NCBI RefSeq assembly: GCF_000745855.1
Contig: NZ_JQKD01000034.1
Location: 1-64,000, forward strand
Reading direction: 5' to 3'
Length of the DNA stretch: 64,000 nt
From: Xenophilus azovorans DSM 13620
GTDB taxonomy: Bacteria > Pseudomonadota > Gammaproteobacteria > Burkholderiales > Burkholderiaceae_C
Part shown: positions 162 to 56,214 of the stretch, one piece after another
How the letters are laid out: each line of letters starts with the position of its first letter
How positions within the stretch are numbered: position 1 is the first letter of the stretch
Program-made: the position numbers and the translations under genes
Notes under the pieces: generated by a model
The model's input: the letters and a program-made list of their open reading frames with translations, nothing else
Databases searched by the model: none
Told to the model about the DNA's origin: nothing

Positions 162-452
162 TCAGAAAACCAAAGGTGCGTTCAGATCGAGAACCGGCTT
201 GGCCCCGATGTGCTCTACCTTGCTCTGCCACTGTCTGCCCAGGTAGTAGAAGCGCAAACTGTCCTGGGTGGTGTCGATGATCTGCACCAGCCGGTGCTTC
301 AAGGCGACCCATTGCGCAGGGTCCACCTCGATCTCGAAGACGGAGAACTGTACCCGCTGTCCATAGTCCAGGCAGGCCCTGGCGATGCGTCGCAGCCGAC
401 GCGCGCCCGCCTTGTCCTGGGTGCTGACGTCATAGCTGACCAAGACCATCAT
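162..452 (-). CDS. cas2: CRISPR-associated endoribonuclease Cas2
   Basis: 96-aa ORF. N-terminus MMVLVSYDVS..AGARRLRRIARACLDYGQRVQFSVFE is typical Cas2. Last gene of the cas operon, 9 nt after cas1. Confidence 0.9.
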   Translation of the reverse strand: MMVLVSYDVSTQDKAGARRLRRIARACLDYGQRVQFSVFEIEVDPAQWVALKHRLVQIIDTTQDSLRFYYLGRQWQSKVEHIGAKPVLDLNAPLVF

Positions 453-461
453 GGGCGCACC

Positions 462-2146: not shown

Positions 2147-2171
2147 CGCCAGGCCCCTCGCGCAGGTGGCT

Positions 2172-3049
2172 TCAGATCAGCTCGCGCACCGTCACGCCGG
2201 CCGGAATGGCCGCGCGGTCGATGCTCACCTCATAGTCCGCATAGGCACGCGGTGCTGCGGCCTCGTCGCCCCGCGCGGGCTGCACCTTGACGGCGTCGAA
2301 CAGCACGTGCGCGGGTGCGTTGCCCATTGCGCTTTCGTGCTCGAACACGATGAGCTTGCGCGCGGCCATCTCGCCGCGGGCGGCGGAGCGATCGTGCTCG
2401 AACATGTTGATGAGCGCGCGCCAGAACAGATCGAGATCCTCGTTCGAGAAGCCCGTGCGCTCGGCCAGCTTGGCCGAGATGAAGCCATGAGCGCGGTACA
2501 GGCCATAGGGAATGATGTGCTTTCGGCCCATGGTGCGGTTGTCGCCGCTCTGGGCTTCAGCTTCCTTCTCGGTGGTCACGGCCATGCGGGTGATAGAAAT
2601 CTCCAGCGGCACCACCGGGTCGATGGAGGTGGCGAAAGCCATCTGGATCGGCCCGCGCACCTGGCCCGCGTTCACGCCCGTGGTCATCACGGCGCCGAAG
2701 CTGCGGATGTCGAAGAAGTTGGCGCACATCCAGGCCGTGATCTCGCGCGCCTTGTCCTTGTCCCTGGGCAGCTTCTTGTCCTCGGGCTTGACGTCGATGG
2801 CGTCATAAGCCTTGCGGTGCTGGTTGTTCAGGATCTCCTTTTCCTGCATGTAGATCGCGTAGCCTGCGGCACCCTCCTTGTCCAGGCTCACGAAGTTGCG
2901 GACCTTGCGCTTGAGGCACACGTCCGTGACGAGCCCTCGATTGGTCTCTGGGTCCAGGCGCGGTAGGTTGCCCGCGTCGGGGTCGCCGTTGGGGTTGCCG
3001 TTGGTGATGTCGAACAAGTAGACGAATTCGTAGCGATGGGCGATGGCGG

Positions 3050-3053
<4 letters not shown>
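2172..3053 (-). CDS. cas7: Type I-C Cascade backbone subunit Cas7c (Csd2)
   Basis: 293 aa. N-terminus [47 protein letters not shown] is a Csd2 hallmark. ATGA overlap with cas8c. Confidence 0.9.
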
Positions 3054-5562
<2,509 letters not shown>

Positions 5563-5584
5563 TCAGATGTTCGTTTACAAAATA

Positions 5585-7882
5585 TTACCAGCTCAAGAGA
5601 TCCGGGCGGATGAGCGTTGGGTTATCCCAACTCAGGCCGAAATGCGGGTCGTACAAACCCTCGTGCGCCAGCACCATGAACTGATCGCCCCATTTCTCTG
5701 GCGTCACCGAAATTACGGCCCCCGCCTTGTAGAGGGCATCGAAGCCCTGACGTGGCAACTGCACCAGATAGGGCTGAAGCTTGCGTGCCAGACCTGCACA
5801 ACCTTGGGCATACGTCAGGGCATCGATGACCTTTTTCGCGTCATCGTCATACGGCACGATGACTGGCATCTGCACGCTGTCGATCATGCGGAACTTGGCG
5901 GCCAGAGTTTCCATGGGCAGGCTGTCGGGGCGGCTGTCCCTGAGCTGACCCATGAGGTTGGGCTCGTCGAGCCGCTCGCTGCCCTTTTGCCAGTACAGCA
6001 GCGAGAAGTAGCGTTCAATGGCCTCGGGCAAGAGCGGATCGTCTTCGCATTGGCGCAAGACTTCGCGGGCAGCCTGGGCATATTGTTTGAGTTCAGGAGG
6101 CGGTGCCCAGTCCTCGTTCTCCGTTGCGAACACCAGAACGTCGCTGGCGTTGAGGGCACGCCTTCCCTCGCGATTGCAGCGGCCGGCGGCCTGGGCAATC
6201 GAGTCCAAGCCTGCTTCGGCGCGCAGCACCGTGGGGAAATCGACGTCGACGCCAGCCTCAATGAGGCTGGTGCTCACCAGCCGGCAGGGTAGTCCCTCCT
6301 TGAGCATCTGCCGCACCTCGGCCAGCACCTTGCTGCGATGCTTGGCGCACATCAGCGTAGTCAGATGTCGGGCGCCCGGCAGATCGGCCATGGCCTGATA
6401 AACGGCGCGCGCGTGGCGGCGGTTGTTGACGATGCACAGCACCTGTTCGCGCGAGCGCATGTGCTCGGCCAGTGCTTCGTCGCTCAGGGTGCCGATATGC
6501 CGCACGCGTACCCGTTCCAGTTGCCTGAACAACTGCGTCGGCTCGTGCGTCAGCTCGCGTACGTCCGTCAAGCCGCCCTCGAACGCCGGCGCCTCCAGTG
6601 CCGGCTGCGTGGCCGTGCACAGCACCACGCTGCTGCGGTAGTTGCGTGCGAGTTCGTCGATCGCCGCCACGCAGGGGCGCAGCAGCTTCAGCGGCATGGT
6701 CTGTGCCTCGTCGAGCACGACCACGCTGCCCGCGATGTTGTGCAGCTTGCGGCACTGCGAGGGCTTGGCCGCGAACAGGCTTTCGAAGAACTGCACGGCG
6801 GTGGTGACGACGATGGGCGCGTCCCAGTTCTCCATGGCCAGCTTCAGCTTCTCCAGGGACTGGTAGCGCTCGGGGTCGTCGCGCGGCGGGTCGGCCTGCA
6901 CGAAGGCGCTGTGGTGTTCGAGCACGGCCGCCTCGCCCAGCGGCCCCAGGGCCTGGCGGAACACCGCGGCGTTCTGCTCGACGATGCTGGTGAACGGGAT
7001 CACGAAGATCACGCGCCGCAGCCCGTGCGCGATGGCGTGGTCCAGCGCGAAGGCCAGCGAGGCGAGGGTCTTGCCGCCGCCGGTCGGTACGGTCAGCGAG
7101 AACAGGCCGGGATCGCGTGCGGCCTGCTGGCGGACGTGGCGCAGGATGTCGCTGCGCAATCGGTTGACCTCGCTGTCGGCCTTGAATTGGCCGAGATGGC
7201 TGTCGAGCTGGCTGCGTAGCGCCTCCAGCGGCGGCGCGGGTGGGCCCGAGTTGCGGTGATCGGGCTCATTCTCCGCTTGGCGGTAGAAGCGCTCGGTATC
7301 GATGAAGTCCGCATCGACCAGGCACGAGAACAGCATGCGCGTGAGAAATGCCAGTTGGAAGGGCTGGCGATCCTTGGCTTGCTGGCGAGTCTCGCCATAG
7401 AACTTGAAGCCCGATGGCAGGCCGAGTTTGTCGGGCAGGGCGATGTCCCGCTCCCAGACGGGATCGAGCACGGGCAGGTCCGCGCTGCGAAGGCGATCCG
7501 CCAGTGCGGTGCGTTCGCCTTCGCCCTGGCCGTTGGCCAGTCCGGCATGGTGTCCTGCGATGCCATAGGCCAGCAGCTGTCCGGCCAACCCGAAGCGCTG
7601 CTGCGCGATGATGCGTGCGCCATGGGTCGAATGATCGACGCGCAAGGGGCTGCCGCGCAGCCGTTCCTGGAAGGGCAGGGTGTACTTGCCCAGGTCGTGA
7701 AGCCAGCCCTGCACGGTAGCCAGCATCTGGGCATCGAAGACGCTGGCGAATGCGCCGGCAGCCGCGCCGACGTTCAGGAGGTGCGCCGGCAAGGGTTGCC
7801 AGAACCGCTCGTCCTCGCCTGGCAGTGAGTGCGCGAAGTACGTGGTTGCCGATGTGCCGCGGCTGCAGCCTTTTTCGTCCAT
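5585..7882 (-). CDS. cas3: CRISPR-associated helicase/nuclease Cas3 (HD nuclease + SF2 helicase)
   Basis: 765 aa. N-terminal HD region (HSLPGEDERFWQPLPAHLLNV..LHDLGKYT), DEAQ helicase motif and PTGGGKT P-loop. First gene of the cas operon. Confidence 0.9.
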   Translation of the reverse strand: MDEKGCSRGTSATTYFAHSLPGEDERFWQPLPAHLLNVGAAAGAFASVFDAQMLATVQGWLHDLGKYTLPFQERLRGSPLRVDHSTHGARIIAQQRFGLAGQLLAYGIAGHHAGLANGQGEGERTALADRLRSADLPVLDPVWERDIALPDKLGLPSGFKFYGETRQQAKDRQPFQLAFLTRMLFSCLVDADFIDTERFYRQAENEPDHRNSGPPAPPLEALRSQLDSHLGQFKADSEVNRLRSDILRHVRQQAARDPGLFSLTVPTGGGKTLASLAFALDHAIAHGLRRVIFVIPFTSIVEQNAAVFRQALGPLGEAAVLEHHSAFVQADPPRDDPERYQSLEKLKLAMENWDAPIVVTTAVQFFESLFAAKPSQCRKLHNIAGSVVVLDEAQTMPLKLLRPCVAAIDELARNYRSSVVLCTATQPALEAPAFEGGLTDVRELTHEPTQLFRQLERVRVRHIGTLSDEALAEHMRSREQVLCIVNNRRHARAVYQAMADLPGARHLTTLMCAKHRSKVLAEVRQMLKEGLPCRLVSTSLIEAGVDVDFPTVLRAEAGLDSIAQAAGRCNREGRRALNASDVLVFATENEDWAPPPELKQYAQAAREVLRQCEDDPLLPEAIERYFSLLYWQKGSERLDEPNLMGQLRDSRPDSLPMETLAAKFRMIDSVQMPVIVPYDDDAKKVIDALTYAQGCAGLARKLQPYLVQLPRQGFDALYKAGAVISVTPEKWGDQFMVLAHEGLYDPHFGLSWDNPTLIRPDLLSW

Positions 7883-9683: not shown

Positions 9684-11224
9684 CCGCTGCCCCTCATCCC
9701 GAATTGCAGGCCCTGTTCGATGCGCTGGGCCTGACGCTGCCGGCTGCGGCCGCCGATGCGGCGACGGCCTGGTCCGTGCGTTCGCCGGTCGATGGCGCCC
9801 TGCTGGCCTGGCTGCCGCGCACCGGCGAGCGGGCGCAGCAGGCCTCGGCCGAAGCCGCCGCGGCTGCCCAGTCGCGCTGGGCGGCTCTGCCGGCGCCCGC
9901 GCGCGGCCAGGCGGTGCGCGCCTTCGGAGAGCAACTGCGCCGGCACCGCGACACGCTGGGCCGGCTGGTGACGCTGGAGACCGGCAAGATCACCGCCGAG
10001 GGCCGCGGCGAGGTGCAGGAGATGATCGACATCTGCGACTTTGCGCTGGGCCTGTCGCGCCAGTTGCATGGCCGCGTCATCGCTTCCGAGCGCGCCGAGC
10101 ACAAGATGCTGGAGACTTGGCACCCCTTCGGCGTCTGCGGCGTGATCTCGGCCTTCAACTTCCCGGCGGCGGTGTGGTCCTGGAATGCGGCGCTGGCGCT
10201 GGTGTGCGGCAATGCCGTGGTGTGGAAGCCCTCCGAGAAGGCGCCGCTGTCGGCGCTGGCGGCGCACGGGCTGCTGCTGCGCGCACTGGGCGAGGCCGTG
10301 CCGGGGCATGAGGCGGTCGCGCAGCTCTGGCTGGGCGGGCGCGAGGCCGGCGAGGCGCTGGTGGCGCACCCGGCGGTGCGGCTGGTCAGCGCCACCGGCT
10401 CCACCGGCATGGGGCGTGCGGTGGGCGTCGCCTGTGCGCAGCACTTCAAGCGCAGCATCCTCGAGCTGGGCGGCAACAACGCCGCCATCGTGCGCCCCAG
10501 CGCCGACCTGGCACTGGCTGCGCGCGCCATCGTGTTCGCCGCCGCTGGCACCGCCGGCCAGCGCTGCACCACGCTGCGGCGCGCCTTCGTGCATCCCGAC
10601 GTGTACGAGCCGCTGCGCGAGCGGCTGCAGCGCGCCTACACCTCGCTGCGCGTCGGCCATCCGGCGGCCGGGGGCACGCTGGTCGGCCCGCTGATCGACG
10701 GCGCCGCCTTCGAGGCCATGCAGCGCACGCTGGCCGAGTGCCGCGATGTGCACGGCAACCGCGTGTGGGGCGGCGAGCGCGTCGCTGTGCCCGGCTGCGA
10801 GGGCGGCTTCTACGTCCGCCCCGCGCTGGTGGAGACCGAGGTGCAGCATGCCGCCATGCTGCGCGAGACCTTCGCGCCCATCCTGTACCTGCAGCGCGTC
10901 GCCGCCCTGGAGGAGGCGATCGCGCTGAACAACGCCGCCGCGCACGGCCTGTCCTCGTGCATCTTCACCGAGTCGCTGCGCGAGGCCGAGCAGTTCATGT
11001 CGCAGGCCGGCAGCGACTGCGGCATCGCCAACGTCAACATCGGCACCAGCGGTGCCGAGATCGGCGGCGCCTTCGGCGGCGAGAAGGACACCGGCGGCGG
11101 CCGCGAGTCGGGCTCCGACGCCTGGAAGGGCTACATGCGCCGCGCCACCAACACCATCAACTACGGCCGCGCGCTGCCGCTGGCGCAGGGGGTGCGCTTC
11201 GAGGTGGACGGCGCCGGCGGGTAG
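9680..11224 (+). CDS. Aldehyde dehydrogenase, ALDH7/AmaB type (piperideine-6-carboxylate / alpha-aminoadipic semialdehyde dehydrogenase)
   Basis: 514 aa. ALDH motifs (FELGGNNA..., catalytic Cys in GQRCTT). C-terminus EIGGAFGGEKDTGGGRESGSDAWKGYMRR is typical of the ALDH7 family. Confidence 0.85.
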   Translation: MTAAPHPELQALFDALGLTLPAAAADAATAWSVRSPVDGALLAWLPRTGERAQQASAEAAAAAQSRWAALPAPARGQAVRAFGEQLRRHRDTLGRLVTLETGKITAEGRGEVQEMIDICDFALGLSRQLHGRVIASERAEHKMLETWHPFGVCGVISAFNFPAAVWSWNAALALVCGNAVVWKPSEKAPLSALAAHGLLLRALGEAVPGHEAVAQLWLGGREAGEALVAHPAVRLVSATGSTGMGRAVGVACAQHFKRSILELGGNNAAIVRPSADLALAARAIVFAAAGTAGQRCTTLRRAFVHPDVYEPLRERLQRAYTSLRVGHPAAGGTLVGPLIDGAAFEAMQRTLAECRDVHGNRVWGGERVAVPGCEGGFYVRPALVETEVQHAAMLRETFAPILYLQRVAALEEAIALNNAAAHGLSSCIFTESLREAEQFMSQAGSDCGIANVNIGTSGAEIGGAFGGEKDTGGGRESGSDAWKGYMRRATNTINYGRALPLAQGVRFEVDGAGG

Positions 11225-11251
11225 CCGTTCCGGAAGGCGGCGCGGCCGGGG

Positions 11252-14200
11252 CTACTTCTTCTTGCGGCCCGCCGCGGGTGCCGCCGCCGGCGTCTCGCCC
11301 AGTGCATCCATGCGCGCCTCCACCTGGGCGATCTCCGGATGGGTGCTGTCCATGCCCAGCCGCGCTTCCACGGCGCGCACCAGCGGCATGATGAGCTGCC
11401 GGTAGGTGACCGAGAGCGAGAGCAGCGCGTCGACCATCCGCTGGTCCTGCGCGGAGCTGCTGTGGGTGTTCAGCGCCTGCGTGCTCTCGCGCAGGGCGTG
11501 CAGCGCGGCCGCGCTGGCGTCCAGGCTGGCGCGCAACTGCTGCTGCGCGCTGGTGTCGCCGGCCTGCAGTTGCCGTGCCAGCGTGCCCAGGTCGGCCAGG
11601 GGCTGTTCCAGGCGGGCGAGCAGGGCACGCTGCTCGGGGCCCGCAGCGGCCAGTTGCTCGGCGATGCGTGACAGCGGCGCCAGCGTGTCCACGCTGCGCG
11701 CGATGTCCAGCAGGCCGCGCGTCACGCGCACGCTGGGGTCGTCCTCGGCGCCGCCCAGCTTGCGCTGGCGCTGGTAGTCGCCGGTGATCTGCTGCCAGCG
11801 CGCCTGTTCCTCCGGCGTGGCCAGGCCGATCAGGTGGGCCAGTTGCAGCAGGTTCTCCTCGGCGCCGGTGGTCAGGGTCTGCGCCTCGCCGCGGTAGTGG
11901 TCGCGCAGCAGGGCGTCGATCTCGTCGTCGCGCATCAGCGACGTGACCTGCGGCGCCAGCCGAGCCATGTTCCGGTAGCTGCCCTGCAGGCGGAAGGGCG
12001 GCTTCTCGCGGTAGCGGTCGTCCTGCGCGGCCGACTCGATGTAGGCCAGGTTCACCTTCAGCAGCACGTCGCGCACCTTGAACAGGCGCTGCAGCAGGCC
12101 CTTGAGTTCGTCCAGTTCGACGGCGCTGTACGGGTGCGCGAAGCGGGTGGCGTCGATCGCCTCGCCCTGCGCCAGGCGCACGAGCAGGTGCACGTCGCCG
12201 GGCTCGCGCGCGGCCAGCGGCTGCGTCACCGGGTGCGAAGTCAGGCTGTTCTCGATGTACGAGAGCGCGAACACCGCCTCGCGGCCCGAGAGCACGTCGC
12301 CCAGGTTGTAGATGTCGGCGCGGTTGGCCAGCATGTCGGGGATGCGGAACACGTCGCCCGACTCGGTGTACGGGTTGCCCGACATGACGATGGCGAAGCG
12401 CTTGCCGCGCATGTCCCAGGTGCGCGGCTGGCCCTGCCACACGCCCTCGATGCGGCGGGTGCCGTCGGCCAGCGCGATGAACTTCTGCAGGAACTCCGGG
12501 TGCGTGTGCTGGATGTCGTCCAGGTACAGCATCACGTTGCTGCCCATCGCCAGGCCGAGGTTGAGCTTCTCCAGCTCCTGCCGCGCGGCGCTGTTGGGCG
12601 CGGTGGCCGGGTCGATGCTGGTGACGCCGTGCCCCAGCGCCGGGCAGTTGATGCGCACGAAGACCAGGCCCAGCCGGTTGGCCACGTATTCCATCAGCGT
12701 GGTCTTGCCGTAGCCGGGCGGCGAGATGAGCAGCAGCATGCCCATGCGGTCGGTGCGCGCGCTGTCGCCGGCCGCGCCGAGCTGCTTGGCCAGGTTGTCG
12801 CCGATCAGCGGCAGGTACACCTCGTCGATCAGCCGGTTGCGCACGAAGGTGGCCAGCGGCCTGGCCTGGAACTGCTCCAGGTGCAGGCGCCGCTTTTCCT
12901 CCTCCAGCAAGGCGTGCCGCAGCGCCTGCAACTGGACGAAGCCGCGGACCGCGTGGCGGCGGTGGTGGCGCACGCGGCGGCGGAAGTCGTTCAGGTTGAA
13001 GGGCAGGGATGCCTCGCGGATGCGCGGGTGTTCGCTGCGCAGGCCGGTCACGGTGGCGTCGAGCGCGGCGTTGATGCGGCGGCGCGCGCCCTGGAACGTC
13101 ATGGCCGTGGCGGCGTCGTCGATCCAGGCCAGCGCCGTCGCAGCGCCGTCGCCGGCTGCCTGCGACTCGGCGAGGGCCCGCAGCCAGCCGCGTGCCATGC
13201 GCCACCGCTCCAGCGGCTCGGCCGCCTGCAGGTCGCGCTGGAGCGCGCCGGCCAGGCCGCCGCGGTCCAGCGCGCGCTGCAAGGCCTGCGCCAGGTCTTC
13301 GCCGGCGCTGCTGATCACCCAGTGCGGCGTGGCGGTGGCGAGATCGGCGGCGGCATCGGCCTGCGCCAGCTCGCGCACCAGGTAGGCCGCGGCCTCTTCG
13401 GCCAGAGTCTGCAGCAGCGCGTCGTGCGCCGGGTCCTCCTGGTCGTCCGCGGCCGGCGCAATGCCCAGGGCCTGCGCCAGCTCGGGCAGCCATTCCTGCC
13501 GCAGTACCCGCTGGGCATCGAGGAAGTGGCGCAGGCTCTGCGCCGTCTCGCGCTCCAGGGTGTCGCGCGGCGCCGTCCGGCCGAACAGTTGCGTGATGTG
13601 CTGCGCGCTGCGGGCGCGGCGCGCCAGCGACTGCCGGCTTTCCTCGCGCAGCTCGAGGTGCCAGAACAGCTTGGCCAGCGCGCGTTCGGCGCAGCCGTAC
13701 AGCAGGAGGCCGGCGGCGTCCTGGATGGGCGCGAGCACGCGCACGATGGCGAGCGCGTCGTCGTCGTGGATGCCGCGCTGGTAGCCCTCCTGGTAGCGGC
13801 TGGCCGCGAAGCGGCGCAGCGAGTCGAGCAGGGCGGCCGGCGGCGGCGCGTCGGTGGCGGCGGCGTTCCTGGCGTGTTCGGCCAACTGGACCAGCAGCTC
13901 GGGCCAGCCGGGCTCGGCCTCGCCGCGCTGCAGCGCGTCCAGCCATTCGGCGGCGAGGTATTCGGCCCGCGCGAGCTGCGGCGTCTCCGACACCAGGGCC
14001 TGCGGCCAGAAGGGGCGCAGCGCCTCCAGCCGTGCATCGATGGCGGGCGCGAGGTAGTCGGTGCCCGTGATCTGCCAGGCCAGGCCGTCGCCGTGGCCCA
14101 CCAGCGTGAGGTCCAGCGGCTGCCTGTTGACGGTGAAGGTGTGGGCGCCCAGCCTGATGCCGCCTTCGGCGCCCGAGGCCAGTTCGCGCTGGTCGCGCAC

Positions 14201-16816
14201 CGCGCGCACGGCCTGGTCGCGCGCCGTCTTCAGCCGGGTGTCGATGTCGTCGGCGGCCACCGCCGCGCCGAGCCTGCGCAGTTCGGCCACCTGCTCGCGC
14301 AGCTTGGCCAGCATCGGGTCGGATGCGAAGTAGCTGTGCACCTGCGCCAGCTCGCCGAAGCCCGCCACGCGGCGCGGCACGCCGTCGAGGATGCGGCCCG
14401 CCGCATCGGCCAGTGCCTTGGCGCGGCGCTGCTGCCCCTCGACCAGGCCCTGGCGCCGGGCCGACAAGGCCTCGTACACGGTCTCGCGCTGCGTGGCGAT
14501 GTCGGCGAGGAATTCTTCCTGCTCGGCGAAGCGGCCCTCGATGTCTTCCAACTGGGCCAGCAGCCGCGTGAGCGCCTCGTCGCACTTCTGCGGCGTGTCC
14601 GACAGCTCCAGCGCGTTCTCCACCGCCTGGCCGAAGAGCTTGAACTGGGCGCCGAACTCGGCGCGCTGCTCGGCCGCACCCAGGCTGCGCCGGCGCGCGC
14701 GTGCATCGGCGCGCAGGCGGTTGATGTCGGCGTACAGCAGCGCGATGCGGTCGAGGATCGCGGTGCGCTGCACCGCATCGCCGCCGGGCAGGTTGCCCAG
14801 TTGCTCGCTCAGCAGGTCCAGTCCGGCCGCCTCGGCGTCGAGCGCGTCCAGTTGTTCCGAGAGCTGCGTGGCCGTCGCCGCCTGCGGCAGCGCGGCGGCC
14901 ACGGCGGCCAGCGCCTTCTGCTGCCCGTCGAAAGCCTTCTCGTCCGCGAGGAACTGCATGGCCCGCTCGCCCACGCGCTGCTGCTCGGCGGCCAGTTGCC
15001 CGGCCATGGCCTCGATGCGCGGCACGTCGGCATAGCGCAGCTCGCGCAGCAGATGCAGTTCGCCCTGGCGCTGGCGCAGGCGGTCCAGCGCACGCACGAA
15101 GTCCTGCGGGCCGCGCCACATCTGGCTGGCGATGTCGGTCATCAGCTCGCGTTGCTGGCCCTCGGCCTTAAGCAGGGCGCGCGCCGTGTCCTGGCGGATG
15201 CTCTCCACCTTCTCGAACTCGCCCAGCGTGGCCTGTGCGGCCTGCTCGATGGCCTGCAGGTCGGCCGCGGCGCCCTGCGCCTCGTGGGCGTCGAGCCAGA
15301 AGTAGGCGTCGCGCGCGCGCTGGCACTGGCGGATCAGGTCCTCGTAGGCGGTGCGCGTGGGGGCCTGCTCGCGCACGGCGCGCGCGATGCCCAGCAGGTC
15401 CGAGATGCCGCGCACCAGGTCGGCATTGCCCACGCGCGCGAAGAAGCCCGTGCCCGCCGGCTGGCGGCTGGCGTATTCCTCGGTGGCGAAGGGGGTGCGC
15501 CACAACTGCATGAGGTGCACGCGCGTGGCCTCGCCGCGTGCGGCCTGGAAGACCAGCAGGCGGCCGTCGGGGAAGCGGCTGTAGCCGTCGGCCAGGATGG
15601 GCGTGGCCAGCGACTTCTCGATCAGGTTGTAGGTGAAGAAGGCGTAGCAGCCGGCATCGAGCGTGGCCGGGCTGCCCTGCGGCGGCGGCACGGTGCCATA
15701 GAAGATGTAGGCCACGTCCTCGCCGTTGGGCGAGCGCAGCATGCGCGTGAAGCGCAACTGCTCGGTCAGCTCGGGCGGCAGGTCGAAGCGCTTGTGCTCG
15801 CCCGACTGCAGGTAATAGCCGCCGGGGAAGATGATGCCGTGGTCTTCGGGCAACTGCATGCACGAGGCGCCGATGGCGTCGATGCGCAGCACCTGCTGCG
15901 TGCGCTGGTTGTAGACCAGGTAGCGCGCGGCCTGCTCGCGGTAGGGCCGCACCTGCAGCAGGATCAGCAGGCCGAGCCGGGCGTAGGCGATCTCGGCGTC
16001 GCCCAGCGCCTGGTTGGCGTCCTCGACGGGTTCCTCGTAGATGCCCAGGCCGGTCTCGGTGTTGTTCTCGACCTTGACGGTCAGCGAGCCGCCGGTGGTC
16101 TCCACGAAGATCGTGTCGAGCACGTTGATGTGCGGGTGCGCGCCGCCCACGTGGTGCTCGCGCGTGAGCGGGGTCCACGCGAAGTCGTGGCTGGGCGGCG
16201 GTGCCAGGTCGCGCTCGCCGCGGTTGTCCACGTACTGGAGCGTGCCGTCGTTGCCGCGCGCCCAGCGGAACACGCGGATGTCCTGCGCCTGCTGGCCGAT
16301 CTGGAAGGCCGCCAGCAGGTAGTCGGGCGTGGGCCGCAGCAGCTGCAGCGTGGCCTGCTTGTAGTAGGTGTAGAGCTCGTTGAAGTCGGCGACGAAGCGC
16401 GGGTCGGCGAGGAAGCTGCCTTCCAGCGGCACCTGCACCAGTTCGTCGCTCTCGGGGTTGCCGGCGGCGTCGGCGTCGTGGTGCGCCAGCGCGTAGATCG
16501 CGAACACGTCCTCCACGCGCGTCTCGCGCTTGAGGCCCATGAACACGTTGTAGCCGAGCAGCAGGCGGTTGCCGCCGATGTAGACCAGGTCGCGCGCCAC
16601 GCAGTTGTGCTCGGTGCGCGCGCGGGTGCGCAGCAGCAGTTGCTGCTCGCGCTGGCCGAACTGCGCGATGCGCTCGGCGTTGAGCGCCTGCGCCTTCGCC
16701 AGGAGCTGGTCGCCCTGCGCCTGCAGGCGCTTCTTGAGCAGTTCGTAGCTGCTGCTCTCGGCGACGCTGGCGTCGACGGCGGCGCGGTCGGCCGCTTCGT
16801 TGGGGGGGCTGGACAT
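11252..16816 (-). CDS. Giant (1854 aa) coiled-coil protein with a single MoxR-like AAA+ ATPase domain; function unknown
   Basis: One continuous ORF with normal amino-acid diversity. Walker A LLLISPPGYGKTTLMEYV, Walker B VMLYLDDIQ, sensor/Arg region IVMSGNPYTESGDVFRIPDMLANRADIYNL. About 1250-aa N-terminal region (globular then long Ala/Glu/Arg/Leu-rich helical). Start codon 9 nt after the flotillin stop. Confidence 0.75.
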   Translation of the reverse strand: MSSPPNEAADRAAVDASVAESSSYELLKKRLQAQGDQLLAKAQALNAERIAQFGQREQQLLLRTRARTEHNCVARDLVYIGGNRLLLGYNVFMGLKRETRVEDVFAIYALAHHDADAAGNPESDELVQVPLEGSFLADPRFVADFNELYTYYKQATLQLLRPTPDYLLAAFQIGQQAQDIRVFRWARGNDGTLQYVDNRGERDLAPPPSHDFAWTPLTREHHVGGAHPHINVLDTIFVETTGGSLTVKVENNTETGLGIYEEPVEDANQALGDAEIAYARLGLLILLQVRPYREQAARYLVYNQRTQQVLRIDAIGASCMQLPEDHGIIFPGGYYLQSGEHKRFDLPPELTEQLRFTRMLRSPNGEDVAYIFYGTVPPPQGSPATLDAGCYAFFTYNLIEKSLATPILADGYSRFPDGRLLVFQAARGEATRVHLMQLWRTPFATEEYASRQPAGTGFFARVGNADLVRGISDLLGIARAVREQAPTRTAYEDLIRQCQRARDAYFWLDAHEAQGAAADLQAIEQAAQATLGEFEKVESIRQDTARALLKAEGQQRELMTDIASQMWRGPQDFVRALDRLRQRQGELHLLRELRYADVPRIEAMAGQLAAEQQRVGERAMQFLADEKAFDGQQKALAAVAAALPQAATATQLSEQLDALDAEAAGLDLLSEQLGNLPGGDAVQRTAILDRIALLYADINRLRADARARRRSLGAAEQRAEFGAQFKLFGQAVENALELSDTPQKCDEALTRLLAQLEDIEGRFAEQEEFLADIATQRETVYEALSARRQGLVEGQQRRAKALADAAGRILDGVPRRVAGFGELAQVHSYFASDPMLAKLREQVAELRRLGAAVAADDIDTRLKTARDQAVRAVRDQRELASGAEGGIRLGAHTFTVNRQPLDLTLVGHGDGLAWQITGTDYLAPAIDARLEALRPFWPQALVSETPQLARAEYLAAEWLDALQRGEAEPGWPELLVQLAEHARNAAATDAPPPAALLDSLRRFAASRYQEGYQRGIHDDDALAIVRVLAPIQDAAGLLLYGCAERALAKLFWHLELREESRQSLARRARSAQHITQLFGRTAPRDTLERETAQSLRHFLDAQRVLRQEWLPELAQALGIAPAADDQEDPAHDALLQTLAEEAAAYLVRELAQADAAADLATATPHWVISSAGEDLAQALQRALDRGGLAGALQRDLQAAEPLERWRMARGWLRALAESQAAGDGAATALAWIDDAATAMTFQGARRRINAALDATVTGLRSEHPRIREASLPFNLNDFRRRVRHHRRHAVRGFVQLQALRHALLEEEKRRLHLEQFQARPLATFVRNRLIDEVYLPLIGDNLAKQLGAAGDSARTDRMGMLLLISPPGYGKTTLMEYVANRLGLVFVRINCPALGHGVTSIDPATAPNSAARQELEKLNLGLAMGSNVMLYLDDIQHTHPEFLQKFIALADGTRRIEGVWQGQPRTWDMRGKRFAIVMSGNPYTESGDVFRIPDMLANRADIYNLGDVLSGREAVFALSYIENSLTSHPVTQPLAAREPGDVHLLVRLAQGEAIDATRFAHPYSAVELDELKGLLQRLFKVRDVLLKVNLAYIESAAQDDRYREKPPFRLQGSYRNMARLAPQVTSLMRDDEIDALLRDHYRGEAQTLTTGAEENLLQLAHLIGLATPEEQARWQQITGDYQRQRKLGGAEDDPSVRVTRGLLDIARSVDTLAPLSRIAEQLAAAGPEQRALLARLEQPLADLGTLARQLQAGDTSAQQQLRASLDASAAALHALRESTQALNTHSSSAQDQRMVDALLSLSVTYRQLIMPLVRAVEARLGMDSTHPEIAQVEARMDALGETPAAAPAAGRKKK

Positions 16817-16825
16817 GCGGCGGCG

Positions 16826-18964
16826 TCAGCCGGGCTTCCTGAAGCTCTGCACCAGTTGCTGCAGCGCGTGCCTCTGGCTGTCCGTGCCTTCGCTCATCAC
16901 CTTACCGATCAGGGCCGACACGCTGAGGTTCTGCAATTCACCCGCCGACTGCCCCGCTGCGCCGAGGATCTGCTTGACGTCTTCCACCACGTCGCGCTCG
17001 CCCGCCAGTTGCTCCTTGAACGCCACCTGCAGCGTATCGCTCTTGTTCACGGCCGCGTCGATGCCCTTGCCCACCGACAGCGCGCGCACGAAGCTGTCGA
17101 AGTAGTCTCCCTGGCCGCCCACGATGTCGATGCGGGCGTTCTTCAGCGCCACGCCCAGCACCTCCGCCTGCTCCCGGGCGATGGCCTGCTGCGCGTCGAT
17201 CTGCTTGAGTGTCTCGAGGTGCGCGCGCTCCAGGCGCATGCGGTATTCCTCGTGCTCGCGCGTCTCGGGGCTCATGGCCTTCATGGCTTCGAACTTCTCC
17301 TTCAGGCCGCGCGCCTCGGCGCTGAACTTCACGTCGATGTTGTGCGCTTCGGCATCGCCCTGCTTGGCCAGCGCCTCGGCGTCCACGGTGCGCACCAGCG
17401 CATCGGCCTGGCCGATCTTTTCCTTGCCGGCGGCCTCGGCCTCCATGCGGGCGCGGATGCCCACGGCGTCGGCCTGCGCCTGCACCTCGGTCACCTGCGC
17501 CTCGGCGCGGCCCACCTTCTCCTTGCCGGTGGCCTCGGCTTCCATGCTGGCCAGCTTGGCGCTGGCCCCGGCCACCTGCACCTTGGCCTCGGCCAGGCCG
17601 GGCGCGGCCGTCAGGGCCTCGATGCCCTCGGCCTCGCGCTTCTTGGCCTCGGCCTCGCGCTCGGCCACCTTCAGGCGCGCATCGGCCAGCACCAGGTCTT
17701 CGGCCGCCTTGTGGCGCGCCTTGCGCTCCTGCGCCTCGGCCGCCTTCACCTCGAGGATCACCTTCTCCTCGGCAGCCGCCTCGGCGCCGATCACCACCGC
17801 CTTGCGCGTGCGGTCGGCCTCTGCCACCTCGCGCACTTCCTTGATCGCCTCTTCCTGCTCGGCCACCGTGCGCTCGACCACGATGCGCTCGCGGATGACG
17901 TCGGCGATCGCCTTCTTCTGCACCTCGACGGCCTTGTCCTTCTCGATCTGCTGCAGCGTCACTTCCTTCTCGCGCGCCACCACTTCCAGGTCCCGGGCGC
18001 GGGTCACGCGCTCCTGCTCGATCACGACCGCGCGCTTGCGGTTGTTCTCGGCCACCTCCTTCTCGCGCAGCACGTTCTCGTTCTGCACCGAGATCTGCTG
18101 CTCGGCCTGCAGCCGCGCCATCTCTGCGCGGGTGTGCTCCTCGGCCTGGATCTTGGAGGTCTCGGCCTCCTCGCGGGCCTTCACGCTGGCCACCTCGCGC
18201 GCCTGGCGCGCCGTGGCGTCGGCCTGCTGGCGCTCCAGCTCGAGCAGGGCCTCCTGCGTTTCCACGTTCTTCTTCTTGATCTGCATTTCCTCGTTGCGGC
18301 GCAGCTCGTTGGTGGTCACGTGCTCCACGGCGGTGAGCTGCGTGATCTTCTTGATGCCCTGCGCATCGAGGATGTTGTTGGCGTCCAGGCGCGCCAGCGG
18401 CGTCTGCTCCAGGTAGTCGATGGCCGAACTCTCGAGCACGTAGCCCGACAGGTCGTTGCCGATCTGGCTCATGATCTTGTCGCGGAAGGCGTCGCGCGCG
18501 TCGTACAGGTCGACGAAATCCATGGCCTTGCCCACCGTCTTGAGCGCTTCGGAGAACTTGGCCGAGAACAGGTCTTCCAGCGTGGACTGGTTGGAGGCCC
18601 GGTCGCAGCCGATGGACTGCGCCACGTGCAGCACGTCCTCGGCGGTCTGGTTCACACGCACGAAGAACTTCACCTTGATGTCGGCGCGGATGTTGTCGGC
18701 GCAGATCAGGCCCTGGTCGCCCGAGCGGTCGATCTCGATGGTCTTGATCGAGATGTCCATCAACTCGGCCTTGTTGATGATCGGCAACACCAGCCCGCCG
18801 GTGAAGGTGACCTTGGGGTCGCCGCGGAAGGGGTTGATGATCAGCGCGTGACCCTGCTCCACCTTGTGATAGAAGCGGGAGAACATCGCGAAGATGCCGA
18901 AGATCACGATCACCGCGATGGCGGCGAGGACCAGGAAGGTGATGATCGAGGGAGACAGGGACAT
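16826..18964 (-). CDS. Flotillin-like SPFH/band-7 protein (YqiK-like) with extended EA-rich coiled-coil
   Basis: N-terminal TM helix then PHB/SPFH domain (HALIINPFRGDPKVTFTGGLVLPIINKAELMDISIKTIEI). Long Glu/Ala/Lys/Arg-rich repeats. ATG at 18964 preferred over the track's TTG at 18982. Confidence 0.85.
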   Translation of the reverse strand: MSLSPSIITFLVLAAIAVIVIFGIFAMFSRFYHKVEQGHALIINPFRGDPKVTFTGGLVLPIINKAELMDISIKTIEIDRSGDQGLICADNIRADIKVKFFVRVNQTAEDVLHVAQSIGCDRASNQSTLEDLFSAKFSEALKTVGKAMDFVDLYDARDAFRDKIMSQIGNDLSGYVLESSAIDYLEQTPLARLDANNILDAQGIKKITQLTAVEHVTTNELRRNEEMQIKKKNVETQEALLELERQQADATARQAREVASVKAREEAETSKIQAEEHTRAEMARLQAEQQISVQNENVLREKEVAENNRKRAVVIEQERVTRARDLEVVAREKEVTLQQIEKDKAVEVQKKAIADVIRERIVVERTVAEQEEAIKEVREVAEADRTRKAVVIGAEAAAEEKVILEVKAAEAQERKARHKAAEDLVLADARLKVAEREAEAKKREAEGIEALTAAPGLAEAKVQVAGASAKLASMEAEATGKEKVGRAEAQVTEVQAQADAVGIRARMEAEAAGKEKIGQADALVRTVDAEALAKQGDAEAHNIDVKFSAEARGLKEKFEAMKAMSPETREHEEYRMRLERAHLETLKQIDAQQAIAREQAEVLGVALKNARIDIVGGQGDYFDSFVRALSVGKGIDAAVNKSDTLQVAFKEQLAGERDVVEDVKQILGAAGQSAGELQNLSVSALIGKVMSEGTDSQRHALQQLVQSFRKPG

Positions 18965-19102
18965 GCTGAGGCTCGCTTGCAAGGAATTTTTAGGGCCGGC
19001 GGGCGGGATGAAGGGCAGGAGCGAGGCGCTCTCAGGGCGATCGTGCGGCGGATGGCGGCACGGGTCGGCACCGGCCGGGCGGCCGGGTCGTCGTTCGGTG
19101 CA

Positions 19103-19747
19103 TCACGGTTCTCCCTCCATGGGTTGCACGAGATAGCGGCGCCGGGCCGCGTCGTAGTCCACGATCAGCGCCCGGCTGCCGCGGCGCAGCGGGTTGGGGC
19201 TGGGCGCCCACACCTGGATGAGGATGCCCGCGCCGCGCTGCGCCACTTCGGCATGGCCCTCTCTCTCGTCGACCACGCCGGTGGTGATTGTGCAGGGCTG
19301 GCCGATCAGGTCGCTGTTCTGGCGGGCGTATTGCGTCACGAAGGCGCCGCGCAAGGGGCGCACCAGCCGCGCCGCGATCACGATGGACAGCGCGAAGCAG
19401 GCCGCGAGCACCACCAGCCCCGCCACGACCTGCAGCGCCAGCGTGGGCACCCAGGCCAGCAGCCAGATGCCGGCCAGCGTGCTGAGCGTCCAGCCGATCA
19501 CCACCAGCAGCGTGACCACGATGGAGAAGGGCACGCCGGACAGGCCGAAGGCCACCACGTAGCCGGCGATGGCGCCCAGGTCGTCCGCGCTCGCGTCGGC
19601 GTGCTGGGCGATGTCCAGGTCGATGCTGCTCTCGCCGAAGTCGACCAGGCCCACGATGGCGGCGATCCAGTAGACCAGCATCACCGCCAGCAGCAGGCTG
19701 TAGATGAATGTGGGAAAGCCGAAGACGACGGAGAGGAATTCGCGCAT
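19103..19747 (-). CDS. NfeD/YqiJ-like inner-membrane protein (membrane anchor + C-terminal OB-fold)
   Basis: 214 aa. Multiple TM helices, C-terminal soluble beta-rich domain (GQPCTITTGVVDEREGHAEVAQRGAGILIQVW). Upstream partner of flotillin, as in yqiJK/yuaF-floT pairs. Confidence 0.65.
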   Translation of the reverse strand: MREFLSVVFGFPTFIYSLLLAVMLVYWIAAIVGLVDFGESSIDLDIAQHADASADDLGAIAGYVVAFGLSGVPFSIVVTLLVVIGWTLSTLAGIWLLAWVPTLALQVVAGLVVLAACFALSIVIAARLVRPLRGAFVTQYARQNSDLIGQPCTITTGVVDEREGHAEVAQRGAGILIQVWAPSPNPLRRGSRALIVDYDAARRRYLVQPMEGEP

Positions 19748-19796
19748 GGTGCCCTTGTTCTTGTGAGGTGGCGAAGCGGGTTCGGCGGCCGGACGG

Positions 19797-20171
19797 TCAG
19801 CGTTTGCGCTTCCTGGCGGCCGGGCTGCGCGATGGGGCGCCTTGCGGCATGAAGTTGATCAGCTCGCGCGTGGCGGCCTCCTTGATGCCCAGCCGGTCTT
19901 CGGGAGACAGGCCGTAGCGCCGGGCCAGCAGCACGTAGTCGGACTCGTCCAGCGTGACGGTCAGGCGCGGCCGCTTGGGCTTGCCCGCCACCGGCAGGCC
20001 CAGCACGTGGCGGATCTGCGTGGAGGTGGACACGTTCTCGCGGAAGGCGGCGGCGCGGATCGCCTCCATCACCGCCTCCTCCACGTCGAAGGCCACCTGC
20101 ACGGCGCGCAGTGCCGATTCGGAGCCTTGCCAGCGGGCCGGTGTCTTTCGCTTCGTGCTGTTGTTGTCCAT
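19797..20171 (-). CDS. Small tandem ribbon-helix-helix-like protein (putative DNA-binding regulator)
   Basis: 124-aa ORF (MDNNSTKRKT...). It is the C-terminal in-frame portion of the artefactual track ORF 19797..21500. Two RHH-like repeats (RAVQVAFDVEEAVMEAIRAAA..STQIRHVL and RLTVTLDESDYVLLARRYGLSPEDRLGIKEAA). Basic C-terminus. Confidence 0.5.
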   Translation of the reverse strand: MDNNSTKRKTPARWQGSESALRAVQVAFDVEEAVMEAIRAAAFRENVSTSTQIRHVLGLPVAGKPKRPRLTVTLDESDYVLLARRYGLSPEDRLGIKEAATRELINFMPQGAPSRSPAARKRKR

Positions 20172-20242
20172 GTTGGTGACGTGCGTGTGACGCTGGATGC
20201 CGGGCGGCCCGGCCGCCGCGCGGGTCGGCCGGTGCGCGCCCT

Positions 20243-20968
20243 TCAGGCGGCGGGCGCGCCGCCGTCGCCTGTGCCTGCGGCGCGGCGCGCCCGCAGCCGC
20301 GCCATCACGGCCTCGGCGCGGCTCTTGTCGCTGTCGCCGATGCCGGCCGCGGCCAGTTCGTTCTCCAGTGCCTTGTGGCCGAACTCCTGGTCCAGTTCCT
20401 CGGCGGCGGCCATGCGGTCGGCCAGGTCCTCGTGGCGCTTCTTGATGCGGTCCAGCGATTCGCGCGCGCTCGTGAGCCTGGAGCCCGTGCTGCCGATGCT
20501 GTCCGAGATGCTCTGCGTGGCGCGGTACACGCTCTCGGTCGTCTTGGCGATGCCGATCTCGCGCTCGTGCTCGCGCACGCGCGCCTCGGCGCTGCGGATC
20601 AGGTCCTTGAGGCGGCCCACCTGCACGGCGAAGCCGGCGTGCGCCTGCGTCTGCACCTGCATCTCGCCCTCCAGCGCCGCCACCCGCTCGGCCACCTTCA
20701 GCGCCAGGCCCTCCTCGGTCTTGTCCAGGGCCTGCAGGGCCATGTCCTCGTGGCGGCGGATCTCGCCCTTGATGCGCTCGATGTCGCGCGCGGTCTGCAT
20801 CTCCTTGGCCATCACGGCCGTGAGTTCGGTCTTGGCCTCGGCGATGCTGGCCTTGGCGTCCACGATCTCCTGTTCGTAGATGCGCGTGGCGTTGTTGTCG
20901 ACCACGCTCTGGCCCAGTTCGCGGGCGCTGCCGCGTAGCAGGGTGACGAGTTTCTTGATGACGGTCAT
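20243..20968 (-). CDS. PspA/IM30 family protein (YjfJ-like; bacterial ESCRT-III superfamily)
   Basis: 241-aa all-helical protein. N-terminus MTVIKKLVTLLRGSARELGQSVVDNNATRIYEQEIVDAKASIAEAK matches the PspA/IM30 amphipathic start and coiled-coil. Confidence 0.85.
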   Translation of the reverse strand: MTVIKKLVTLLRGSARELGQSVVDNNATRIYEQEIVDAKASIAEAKTELTAVMAKEMQTARDIERIKGEIRRHEDMALQALDKTEEGLALKVAERVAALEGEMQVQTQAHAGFAVQVGRLKDLIRSAEARVREHEREIGIAKTTESVYRATQSISDSIGSTGSRLTSARESLDRIKKRHEDLADRMAAAEELDQEFGHKALENELAAAGIGDSDKSRAEAVMARLRARRAAGTGDGGAPAA

Positions 20969-21001
20969 GTTCGGCTCCTGTGTGGGTTCGGGGCGGGGAG
21001 G

Positions 21002-21418
21002 TCAGCGCAGGTAGTCGGCCAGCGCATCGAGGGCGTCGAGGGCGTTGTCGCTGAGCACGGCGACTTCGTGGGCCACGTCCTCGGCGCGCGCGCTGCGGGC
21101 CAGGGCGCCCGTGAGCACGTAGCGTTGGCCCACGCGGCCGAAGGACGACAGCGGCACCGACGGGTTCAGGTCCAGCAGGGCCTCGTGCAGCTCGGCGCGG
21201 CGGTCCGCGCGCACGTCCTCGTCGGTCCAGAGGTAGCACAGGCAGATCAACTGCGTGTCCGAGCAGGTCACGAAGATCGGCAGCTCGTCGCGCCCCTCGA
21301 TGCAGACCTGGATCACCGGCACCTCGCCGGCGATGGGCTGCAACTGCACACCGACGCCGCCCATCACGGCCGACGTCAGCGTGTCCAGGTTGCTGAGCTG
21401 ATGGAGCAGAACGGTCAT
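21002..21418 (-). CDS. YjfI-like DUF2170 family protein
   Basis: 138 aa, acidic, directly upstream of the PspA-family gene (yjfI-yjfJ-like pairing). AGGAGG RBS 6 nt before the ATG. Confidence 0.55.
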   Translation of the reverse strand: MTVLLHQLSNLDTLTSAVMGGVGVQLQPIAGEVPVIQVCIEGRDELPIFVTCSDTQLICLCYLWTDEDVRADRRAELHEALLDLNPSVPLSSFGRVGQRYVLTGALARSARAEDVAHEVAVLSDNALDALDALADYLR

Positions 21419-21495
21419 GGTGCCCTCCTAATCGTGATGGCCGTGGATCGGATGCCTCGCCGGAGCCCGACGGTGAATGCAGTATGCGGTCGCGC

Positions 21496-21534
21496 GACAT
21501 ATCATGTCAACGGATTTTTGACATGAAATGTCAA
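21496..21534. promoter_or_regulatory. Array of four alternating TGTCA/TGACA half-sites (GACAT-atc-ATGTCAA-N7-TTGACAT-gaa-ATGTCAA) in the divergent promoter region
   Basis: Read directly from the sequence. A perfect inverted repeat ATGTCAA-N7-TTGACAT plus two flanking half-sites, 80-115 bp upstream of the yjfI-like start and about 65 bp upstream of the ahcY leader. Confidence 0.45.
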
Positions 21535-21584
21535 GGATCCTCCGCCGGACGGCCCCGTGCGGCGGCGGTGCGCGGCGCCCTTTC

Positions 21585-21590
21585 TATAAT
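21585..21590 (+). promoter_or_regulatory. Candidate -10 hexamer TATAAT for the SAH riboswitch/ahcY transcript
   Basis: Perfect TATAAT about 8-12 nt upstream of the riboswitch 5' end. No good -35 seen. Confidence 0.35.
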
Positions 21591-21596
21591 TCGCCC

Positions 21597-21685
21597 ACTT
21601 CCGAGGAGCGTTGCAGCGTCCCCCGCCCGGAGCGGAGCGGTCGCGAGGCTCGGACCGATTCTTTGCAACGACGCTCGCCCACGGC
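21597..21685 (+). ncRNA. SAH riboswitch (S-adenosylhomocysteine-sensing leader of ahcY)
   Basis: CCGAGGAGCGTTGCAGCG...GGCTCGG...TTGCAACGACGCTCGCC matches the conserved SAH-element core (GAGGAGCG/CGCUC pairing, UGCAACG repeat). Lies immediately 5' of ahcY. Confidence 0.7.
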
Positions 21686-21743
21686 TCTGTGCGGTGAGTT
21701 TCCCCAGAACGTGGTCGTCTTCAACCTGCCGTATGGAGTATTG

Positions 21744-23201
<1,458 letters not shown>

Positions 23202-56137: not shown

Positions 56138-56214
56138 TGGTGGCGCTTCACGGACTCGAACCGCGGACCTGTGGATTATGATTCCATCGCTCTAACCGAC
56201 TGAGCTAAAGCGCC
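56138..56214 (-). tRNA. tRNA-Met (anticodon CAT; elongator-type, or possibly tRNA-Ile2)
   Basis: Reverse complement folds as GGCGCTT-TA-GCTC..GAGC-G-ATGGA-ATCATAA-TCCAC-AGGTC-CGCGG-TTCGAGT-CCGTG-AAGCGCC-ACCA. G1-C72 is paired, so not an initiator. Coordinates +/-1. Confidence 0.85.

Follow-up and report, generated by a model that had tools for sequence, protein, structure and literature searches.

A probable bac-type PspA-flotillin-giant AAA+ ATPase operon in Xenophilus azovorans with a candidate detached autorepressor

Introduction

The bacABCDEF operon of Pseudomonas aeruginosa (PA3732-PA3727, or PA14_16140-16200), which has been studied since 2008, is the closest described counterpart of a six-gene cluster located in a 64,000-nucleotide stretch of Xenophilus azovorans DSM 13620 DNA (contig NZ_JQKD01000034.1, positions 1 to 64,000; hereafter, the window). 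Osmotic shock induces the PspA-like protein PA3731, on which biofilm formation, swarming, rhamnolipid production, and virulence depend (Macé et al. 2008, PMC2587700), and defects in the same four traits are seen in bac mutants (PMC10948618, PMC2587700). The six genes were shown by reverse transcription PCR to be co-transcribed, and BacB-F are 6-13-fold more abundant in a bacA mutant (Wallart et al. 2024, PMC10948618). The crystal structure of BacA resembles type III secretion system chaperones (PMC10948618), and binding of BacA to BacB is predicted with a probability of 0.98 (PMC13092808). Deletion of the flotillin PaFlo3 (PA14_16180, BacD) causes only a mild phenotype, and recurrent mutation in cystic fibrosis isolates has been listed for PA3728, an ATPase.

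An operon class containing a CesT/Tir(YjfI)-PspA dyad, a YqiJ/YuaF protein with three transmembrane (TM) segments, and sometimes a phospholipase D (PLD) hydrolase was described by Ravi, Anantharaman, Aravind, Gennaro et al. (mSystems 2024, PMC11237479; preprint 2020), who also found abbreviated flotillin/YqiJ/ATPase operons to be more widespread. In view of these studies, the suggestion made from the window sequence alone (the original prediction), that the cluster is an undescribed system, has to be abandoned.

Relationship to the bac operon

The six-gene cluster is, judging from sequence comparison, probably the X. azovorans member of the bac-type PspA-flotillin-giant AAA+ operons for envelope or membrane stress, lacking bacF and carrying a detached small regulator. 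The bac cluster was reached through an NCBIfam match of the yjfI-like protein to "biofilm formation regulator BacA". Counterparts of BacA, B, C, D, and E are encoded in the window in the same order, on one strand and with short gaps, and show identities of 32, 35, 31, 54, and 46%, respectively (BLASTP, 2e-11, 5e-33, 8e-25, 0, and 0). The P. aeruginosa locus in our survey (L084) encodes, in order, a DUF2170 protein (206 aa), PspA (231 aa), proteins of 213 and 688 aa, the giant ATPase (1746 aa), and a PLDc_2 protein (230 aa), and its giant homologue (P0401, 1746 aa) stands for a cluster of 3222 sequences. In contrast to the P. aeruginosa operon, the window has no counterpart of bacF (PLDc_2), an aldehyde dehydrogenase gene being found instead; pspA and the yqiJ-like gene are separated by an extra small gene; an N-terminal extension of about 60 aa in BacA is missing from the window YjfI; and the sigma70-like window promoter carries palindromic operators, the site proposed in P. 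aeruginosa being of the sigma54 type. The locus is thus one more member of a described family and adds little beyond the regulatory inference given below.

Long spurious open reading frames (ORFs) are common in the window, the GC content of which is about 70%, and real genes were therefore chosen by codon-position GC. All six co-oriented minus-strand ORFs that had been predicted are present (Table 1), each with a GC content at the third codon position of 0.94-0.96, which is typical of real genes in a genome of about 70% GC. The intergenic gaps from the yjfI-like gene to the giant gene are 33, 71, 49, 138, and 9 nt; the expected range of 9-120 nt holds for four of them, the remaining gap being 138 nt from the flotillin ATG and 120 nt only from an upstream TTG. 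A consensus scan of positions 11000-21700 yielded a single sigma70-like promoter, upstream of the yjfI-like gene, in line with the one promoter region that had been envisaged, and no minus-strand terminator-like site within the cluster. The 3' end of the cluster was placed at 11252 because a convergent gene, recognized by its codon-position signal, ends at 11224.

Table 1. Features of the window discussed in the text, with the six genes of the cluster listed in transcriptional order after their promoter
Feature	Positions	Strand	Remarks
Promoter and operator region	21481-21534	-	sigma70-like promoter, two palindromes
yjfI-like gene	21002-21418	-	138 aa, DUF2170
pspA	20243-20968	-	241 aa, PspA/IM30, YjfJ/BacB type
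Small gene	19797-20171	-	124 aa; nested within a longer spurious ORF
yqiJ-like gene	19103-19747	-	214 aa, BacC-like membrane protein
Flotillin gene	16826-18964	-	712 aa counted from ATG; YqiK type/BacD
Giant ATPase gene	11252-16816	-	1854 aa, BacE-like, cytoplasmic
Aldehyde dehydrogenase-like gene	9686-11224	+	convergent, downstream of giant gene
SAH riboswitch (RF01057)	21597-21683	+	upstream of ahcY; 52 bits vs gathering score 37
ahcY	~21771-23201	+	S-adenosylhomocysteine (SAH) hydrolase; upstream of and divergent from the cluster
Type I-C CRISPR-Cas set	162-7882	-	with further small ORFs down to 162
cas3	5585-7882	-	
cas5c	4864-5538	-	
csd1/cas8c	3050-5098	-	
cas7c	2172-3053	-	
tRNA gene (RF00005)	56141-56214	-	66 bits (Rfam); no relation to the cluster

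Membrane-associated proteins of the cluster

The predicted YjfI and PspA/IM30 labels were borne out. The yjfI-like protein matches Pfam DUF2170 (PF09938; 2e-28, 99 bits against a gathering score of 27), E. coli YjfI (2e-8), and PDB entry 8q8o ("DUF2170 family protein"; 2e-8), and its sequence identifies it as a YjfI/BacA-like protein of the CesT/type III secretion chaperone-like kind. It scores 45 bits against the NCBIfam BacA model NF050185 (206 aa; cut-off 300), aligning to model positions 86-203 only, while Pseudomonas-type YjfI proteins from giant-bearing loci clear this equivalog cut-off with 348 and 345 bits. PspA matches PF04012 (PspA_IM30) over aa 3-229 (7e-32, 111 bits against a gathering score of 33.9) and is 30% identical to E. 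coli YjfJ (5e-23).

The 214-aa protein possesses three hydrophobic regions, as judged from hydropathy, and a C-terminal soluble β-rich domain that is short and NfeD-like. Pairwise BLASTP gave no similarity to E. coli YqiJ, and the predicted NfeD/YqiJ-like label was upheld at the profile level only, where a family profile of 75 syntenic members matches YqiJ with an hmmsearch value of 1.6e-10 and an hhalign probability of 90%. On this sequence comparison, the protein encoded upstream of the flotillin gene is classified as NfeD-like/YqiJ (DUF1449) type. The flotillin label is confirmed by 30% identity to E. coli YqiK over 463 aa (BLASTP, 3e-44, aa 12-458); one N-terminal TM helix (aa 1-33) precedes the SPFH region, after which comes a long, charged helical stretch. 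Neither of these two proteins is detected by Pfam, including its Band_7 and Flot models, even at E<=10, and the precomputed Pfam annotations of their homologues are likewise empty. NCBIfam and PADLOC scans also drew a blank for both of them and for the small protein, which Pfam likewise failed to match at E<=10, and comparison of the flotillin with PDB sequences gave no informative match (nothing or only P-loops across searches of this kind). The flotillin and the YqiJ-like protein were instead identified by comparing them directly to E. coli sequences and through family profiles, and the flotillin link would be missed by domain-based neighborhood screens because Pfam-A has no model that detects YqiK-type flotillins or YqiJ-like proteins.

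Giant AAA+ ATPase

Pfam places DUF3686, which was assigned as a β-propeller by Ravi et al. (PMC11237479), at aa 38-506 of the giant (1.3e-179) and DUF7902 at aa 627-711, in addition to an AAA+ P-loop region. The overall order is DUF3686, a coiled-coil stalk (~510-790), a globular β plus helical part (~886-1311), the AAA+ core (~1360-1480), and a helical C-terminal region. About 800 aa of coiled coil had been predicted, a figure that did not survive: a crude heptad scan gives about 350 coiled-coil-like residues, mostly at 510-790, so that the coiled coil amounts to ~280-350 aa, and residues ~886-1311 are modeled as globular with high confidence. In the AlphaFold model of aa 860-1854 (43-sequence alignment; predicted local distance difference test (pLDDT) 79.3; predicted template modeling score 0.60), a small β domain (~886-925) precedes a confident all-helical globular region (~950-1240), and a second small β unit and a long helix connect the latter to the α/β core of the AAA+ domain, which is followed by a lid and the helical C-terminal region. 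No structural match beyond AAA+ hits was obtained for the middle helical domain (aa ~950-1240), and hydropathy revealed no strong TM segment in the giant.

Across 21 members with identities down to 31%, there is no variation in the Walker A (SPPGYGKTT) and Walker B (LYLDDIQH) motifs, in the sensor-1 Asn, or in several Arg residues. The DSSP string, as we read it, shows a β-hairpin that separates the Walker B helix from the sensor-1 strand. The predicted MoxR-like nature of the protein agrees with the intact Walker motifs and with a core most similar to MoxR-type structures, as expected for the AAA_5 (MoxR/dynein/midasin) group; in the model, the core appears to resemble MoxR, dynein, midasin, and Hsp100 more closely than members of the classical clade, to which Vps4 belongs. 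Membership in the classical clade (Rix7/p97) was first hinted at by P-loop sequence matches in the PDB and was dropped after structure-based searches. PDB searches with the whole giant-family profile gave P-loop matches only or nothing.

Exactly this protein is entered in the database as "DNA repair ATPase [Xenophilus azovorans]", DUF3686 is described in Pfam as "ATPase involved in DNA repair", and weak P-loop matches to RuvB occur, all of which would favor a DNA-repair ATPase whose adjacency to membrane genes has no functional meaning. This explanation is scarcely credible. The matches to RuvB are confined to some 45 residues around Walker A and reach 18 bits against a cut-off of 282, a Pfam scan of the giant disclosed neither a DNA-binding nor a nuclease domain, and the linkage of the giant to the flotillin and YqiJ-like genes is kept across at least five phyla. 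Furthermore, in P. aeruginosa (PMC10948618), BacE and the Bac membrane proteins are regulated together. A literature search on "DUF3686" returned no mention of it, and the name appears to have been inherited; it looks like a propagated misannotation unsupported by gene context, domain content, or the searchable literature. The label carried by thousands of giants is thus almost certainly misleading, and the locus is better annotated as a bac/Psp-like membrane-stress operon.

Conservation of the operon

With the N-terminal 720 aa of the giant as the query, 834 clusters (50% identity level) were retrieved at E<=1e-3 and 260 at E<=1e-30, and a scan of one genome per species placed relatives in at least 584 species. 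Eighty loci were kept, from Beta-, Gamma-, and Zetaproteobacteria, Myxococcota, Actinomycetota, Planctomycetota, and Acidobacteriota, and genes were counted by iterated profile searches over all ORFs of 83 loci. Flotillin is encoded in 80 of the 83 loci and the YqiJ-like protein in 75, invariably just upstream of the giant gene and on the same strand, the missing cases being contigs cut near the gene. YjfI and PspA (34 loci each) are found together and in proteobacteria only. PLD occurs in 21 loci, the small gene in 14, a Zn-ribbon protein between flotillin and giant in 13, and a 260-aa protein in six. The commonest arrangement is the YqiJ-like/flotillin/giant trio alone (33 loci). Clustering of flanking ORFs in 82 loci disclosed no further universally conserved neighbor, whether a VWA partner or a PspA substitute in the core-only loci. 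Because the trio is near-universal and the YjfI-PspA dyad is present in only 34 of 83 loci, the constant partner of the giant is flotillin rather than PspA. The linkage to flotillin/PspA genes expected in the original prediction is therefore conserved, universally so for flotillin, although co-occurrence of the giant with all four partners holds for flotillin and the YqiJ-like protein and not in general for YjfI-PspA.

These counts bear on the view that the giant is an ESCRT-III/Vps4-type machine that mainly disassembles or recycles a PspA polymer, with flotillin as nothing but a landing platform. According to work cited in PMC10948618 and PMC11237479, PspA adopts the ESCRT-III fold; PspA and the giant share one operon in 34 loci, and ATP-dependent remodeling was proposed by Ravi et al. 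(PMC11237479) for PspA-AAA+ pairs. With flotillin as the constant partner, we regard such a machine as unlikely. The earlier idea of a membrane-remodeling machine with a dedicated ATPase was right in spirit and wrong about novelty, and its Vps4 analogy is weaker than that with a flotillin-directed MoxR-like motor. In P. aeruginosa, bac affects biofilm formation and virulence; the survey singles out the flotillin-ATPase pair as the conserved core.

Lineage-specific neighbors comprise rhomboid, TelA, PLD, and Zn-ribbon genes. A rhomboid-family gene (Pfam, 2e-18) lies directly downstream of the giant gene in seven gamma-proteobacterial loci, including L019:15217-15819, and a TelA toxic-anion-resistance gene (1e-71) occupies this position in eight Xanthomonadales loci, including L032:15915-17132; both fit a membrane/envelope-stress theme. 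The best NCBIfam matches of a bacF-type PLD (L026:15796-16485) are NucT, a Nuc-type nuclease (9e-13), and DISARM DrmC (4e-9), and on this sequence resemblance the PLD may act as a nuclease and not as a phospholipase. The 181-aa protein encoded between flotillin and giant in Burkholderiales (L001:9443-9988) matches a TraR/DksA-type C4 zinc finger (2.9e-5). The window contains neither the bacF-type PLD nor the 181-aa Zn-ribbon gene.

Promoter, operator, and candidate autorepressor

The promoter of the cluster consists of a -35 box TTGACA at 21510-21505 and a -10 box CATACT at 21486-21481 on the minus strand. The array of TGTCA half-sites noticed earlier is present and is organized as two 13-bp palindromes, GACAT-N3-ATGTC, at 21496-21508 and 21520-21532. 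Their extended forms, TTGACAT-N3-ATGTC(A/G), are TTGACATTTCATGTCAA at 21518-21534, a perfect 7-3-7 palindrome, and TTGACATGATATGTCG at 21494-21510, which overlaps the -35 box. The two copies of GACAT-N3-ATGTC in the window compare with 0.00 expected from 100 shuffles. In the other 82 loci (1.81 Mb), 16 copies were found, all of them in the roughly 100 bp that precede the yjfI-like gene, and the motif is restricted to loci with the small gene, being present in 12 of the 13 other such loci and in no locus that lacks the gene. A one-off variant of the motif occurs in L021, where the small gene is at the operon end. Across the small-gene loci, TTGACA is followed after 16-18 nt by a TAnnnT-type -10 box, and the remaining intergenic DNA has diverged. 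Because of this strict co-occurrence with the operator motif, the small protein is considered a candidate autorepressor of the operon.

The small gene had been predicted to encode a tandem ribbon-helix-helix (RHH) protein. The gene is real and conserved, with 435 homologues, all unannotated and without Pfam domains, and its product is 68% identical to a Variovorax protein encoded at the same operon position. In the AlphaFold model (pLDDT 78.7), a long helix spans residues 17-44 and is followed by a short one, then by a stretch that includes PRLTVTL and is left unpaired, and finally by helices 76-86 and 93-107. The tandem arrangement is not supported by the model: aa 17-44 of the N-terminal half form a single long helix at pLDDT 86-91, no intramolecular two-stranded sheet is modeled, and aa 61-107 form a coil-helix-helix unit. 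A resemblance to RHH is confined to the C-terminal half, for which hhalign gave a weak match to CopG (31% over aa 68-92) and 7 of 32 family members gave sub-threshold hits to FitA-like_RHH, RHH_1, and RHH_5. PDB sequence searches with the protein and its profile gave no informative match, and Foldseek found no significant match to the model. It is plausible, in light of the model, that approximately aa 68-107 are RHH-like and that the protein dimerizes through a single C-terminal RHH.

YjfI/BacA proteins with an N-terminal extension of about 60 aa (...RQRLREQGLVKKEVWILPE...) occur in 20 of 20 YjfI loci without the small gene, and the extension is missing from 14 of 14 loci with it; its motif, as seen in Pseudomonas BacA, was not found in the window yjfI-like protein. 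The 206-aa NCBIfam BacA model includes the extension, which gives a weak match to the plasmid repression protein UrfF (1.7e-3). The extension probably does the same repressor job in Pseudomonas and other gamma-proteobacteria, to judge from this sequence pattern, and such a role fits the derepression of BacB-F in the bacA mutant. The regulatory role ascribed to BacA may then reside in an extension outside the crystallized chain. The small protein and GACAT-N3-ATGTC could constitute a previously unrecognized autorepressor module that is interchangeable with the BacA extension; this is put forward tentatively and jointly with the flotillin-motor core described below. If it holds, BacA is a DNA-binding repressor fused to a PspA chaperone, and the regulatory model becomes one of a small repressor acting with a 13-bp palindrome in Burkholderiales and of a fused repressor-like domain on BacA in Pseudomonas. 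What is new here, the tie of the operator to the small gene in reciprocity with the BacA extension, is of modest novelty.

Pseudomonas BacA proteins of 205-209 aa with the conserved extension of about 60 aa are encoded at L084:3722-4342 (P. aeruginosa), L026:5464-6081, and L019:5433-6062, and the crystallized BacA chain (PDB 8q8o) has 146 residues. The proposed sigma54 site may fall in or near coding sequence because it lies upstream of the shorter bacA.

On the opposite strand, a second promoter serving ahcY, with the upstream palindrome as its -35 box, was considered and rejected, no -10-like hexamer following it; the promoter scan of 11000-21700 listed no plus-strand promoter-like site. The start listed for the ahcY ORF, 21528, lies too far upstream, given that the Pfam match begins at aa 87.

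Proposed mechanism

Homology, gene linkage, and operator association are demonstrated for the window, and the remainder of the following working model, which we consider likely, is inferred. The small protein may repress the operon by binding to the pair of GACAT-N3-ATGTC operators overlapping the sigma70 -35 box; in gamma-proteobacteria, the same repression would probably be exerted through the repressor-like N-terminal extension fused to BacA. The flotillin, held by its one TM anchor, could dock to the YqiJ-like NfeD-type protein to form an SPFH cage or microdomain at the cytoplasmic face of the inner membrane. The giant may oligomerize via its MoxR/dynein-like AAA+ core, while the DUF3686 head and the coiled-coil stalk of about 280 aa could engage the flotillin assembly, followed by ATP-driven assembly, remodeling, or dismantling of this assembly or of its clients. 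In Proteobacteria, the YjfI-type chaperone may hold PspA and deliver it to the same site, where the stressed membrane would be stabilized or repaired. The net role of the system could be the upkeep of the inner membrane under osmotic, envelope, or phage-induced stress.

In this model, the YqiJ-like protein, the flotillin, and the giant MoxR-like ATPase may form an ancestral, phylum-spanning unit, to which PspA and YjfI would be a proteobacterial addition. Combined with the autorepressor module into one claim, this is a possibility that we hold with some doubt, and it is not stated in the accessible literature. If correct, the giant would be a dedicated motor of the flotillin cage and the first ATP-driven remodeler of an SPFH scaffold.

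Genomic context and anti-phage defense

The proximity of type I-C cas genes, 3.4 kb from the cluster, had suggested a defense-island context, and an anti-phage or abortive infection function, in which the membrane is permeabilized or sealed on infection, was considered. The upregulation of PA3728-PA3732 on infection by two virulent phages (PMC12041424) and the resemblance of the bacF-type PLD of related operons to NucT and DISARM DrmC point in this direction. However, phage induction is also expected of a generic phage-shock or membrane-stress response and is not proof of defense, and no PLD is encoded in the window. The cas proximity is real, but homologues of cas3, csd1, cas5c, and cas7c are near the operon in 0 of the 82 other loci, and in the window an AsnC-type regulator, saccharopine dehydrogenase, and aldehyde dehydrogenase separate the cas genes from the cluster. 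The PADLOC check that had been proposed for the six proteins gave no significant match in PADLOC-DB v2, the best hits being IetA (1.2e-3) and JetC (3.2e-3) through P-loop or coiled-coil stretches only. The operon stands in a different housekeeping context in each genome and has the appearance of a chromosomal system passed on vertically, not of island cargo. A defense function is accordingly very unlikely in our estimation. As for the CRISPR-Cas set itself, Tandem Repeats Finder detected no CRISPR array in the window, and the array may lie beyond position 1.

Comparison with known systems

The operon class of Ravi et al. (PMC11237479) is identical in composition to the window cluster, and the wider spread of the abbreviated operon is reproduced by the present survey; in its account of this class, the text of that study is silent on both the small RHH-like gene and the operator. 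The yqiJ-yqiK pair of E. coli has the same gene order, and the window flotillin is a clear YqiK homologue, while the membrane protein matches YqiJ at the profile level. In contrast, neither a giant ATPase nor PspA adjoins the E. coli pair, and the window flotillin is about 160 aa longer. With E. coli yjfIJKLMC, the window shares the dyad of YjfI/DUF2170 and a YjfJ-type PspA; the E. coli set includes polyamine-related genes, whereas equivalents of yjfK, yjfL, yjfM, and yjfC are not beside the window dyad, as had been noted from the sequence, and the flotillin and the ATPase are found there instead.

MoxR proteins have about 300-500 aa and operate with a VWA-domain partner. Compared with the MoxR chaperone systems CbbQ/CbbO, NorQ/NorD, and RavA/ViaA, the window giant is much larger (1854 aa), possesses large N-terminal domains, and has no conserved VWA gene nearby. 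The eukaryotic ESCRT-III/Vps4 and archaeal CdvB/CdvC systems likewise pair a polymer-forming protein of the ESCRT-III fold, here PspA, with an AAA+ ATPase, and a remodeling analogy is plausible in this respect. Nevertheless, the window ATPase has no MIT domain, which separates it from Vps4/CdvC, its core appears closer to the MoxR group than to that clade of classical AAA proteins, and its conserved partner is flotillin instead of PspA.

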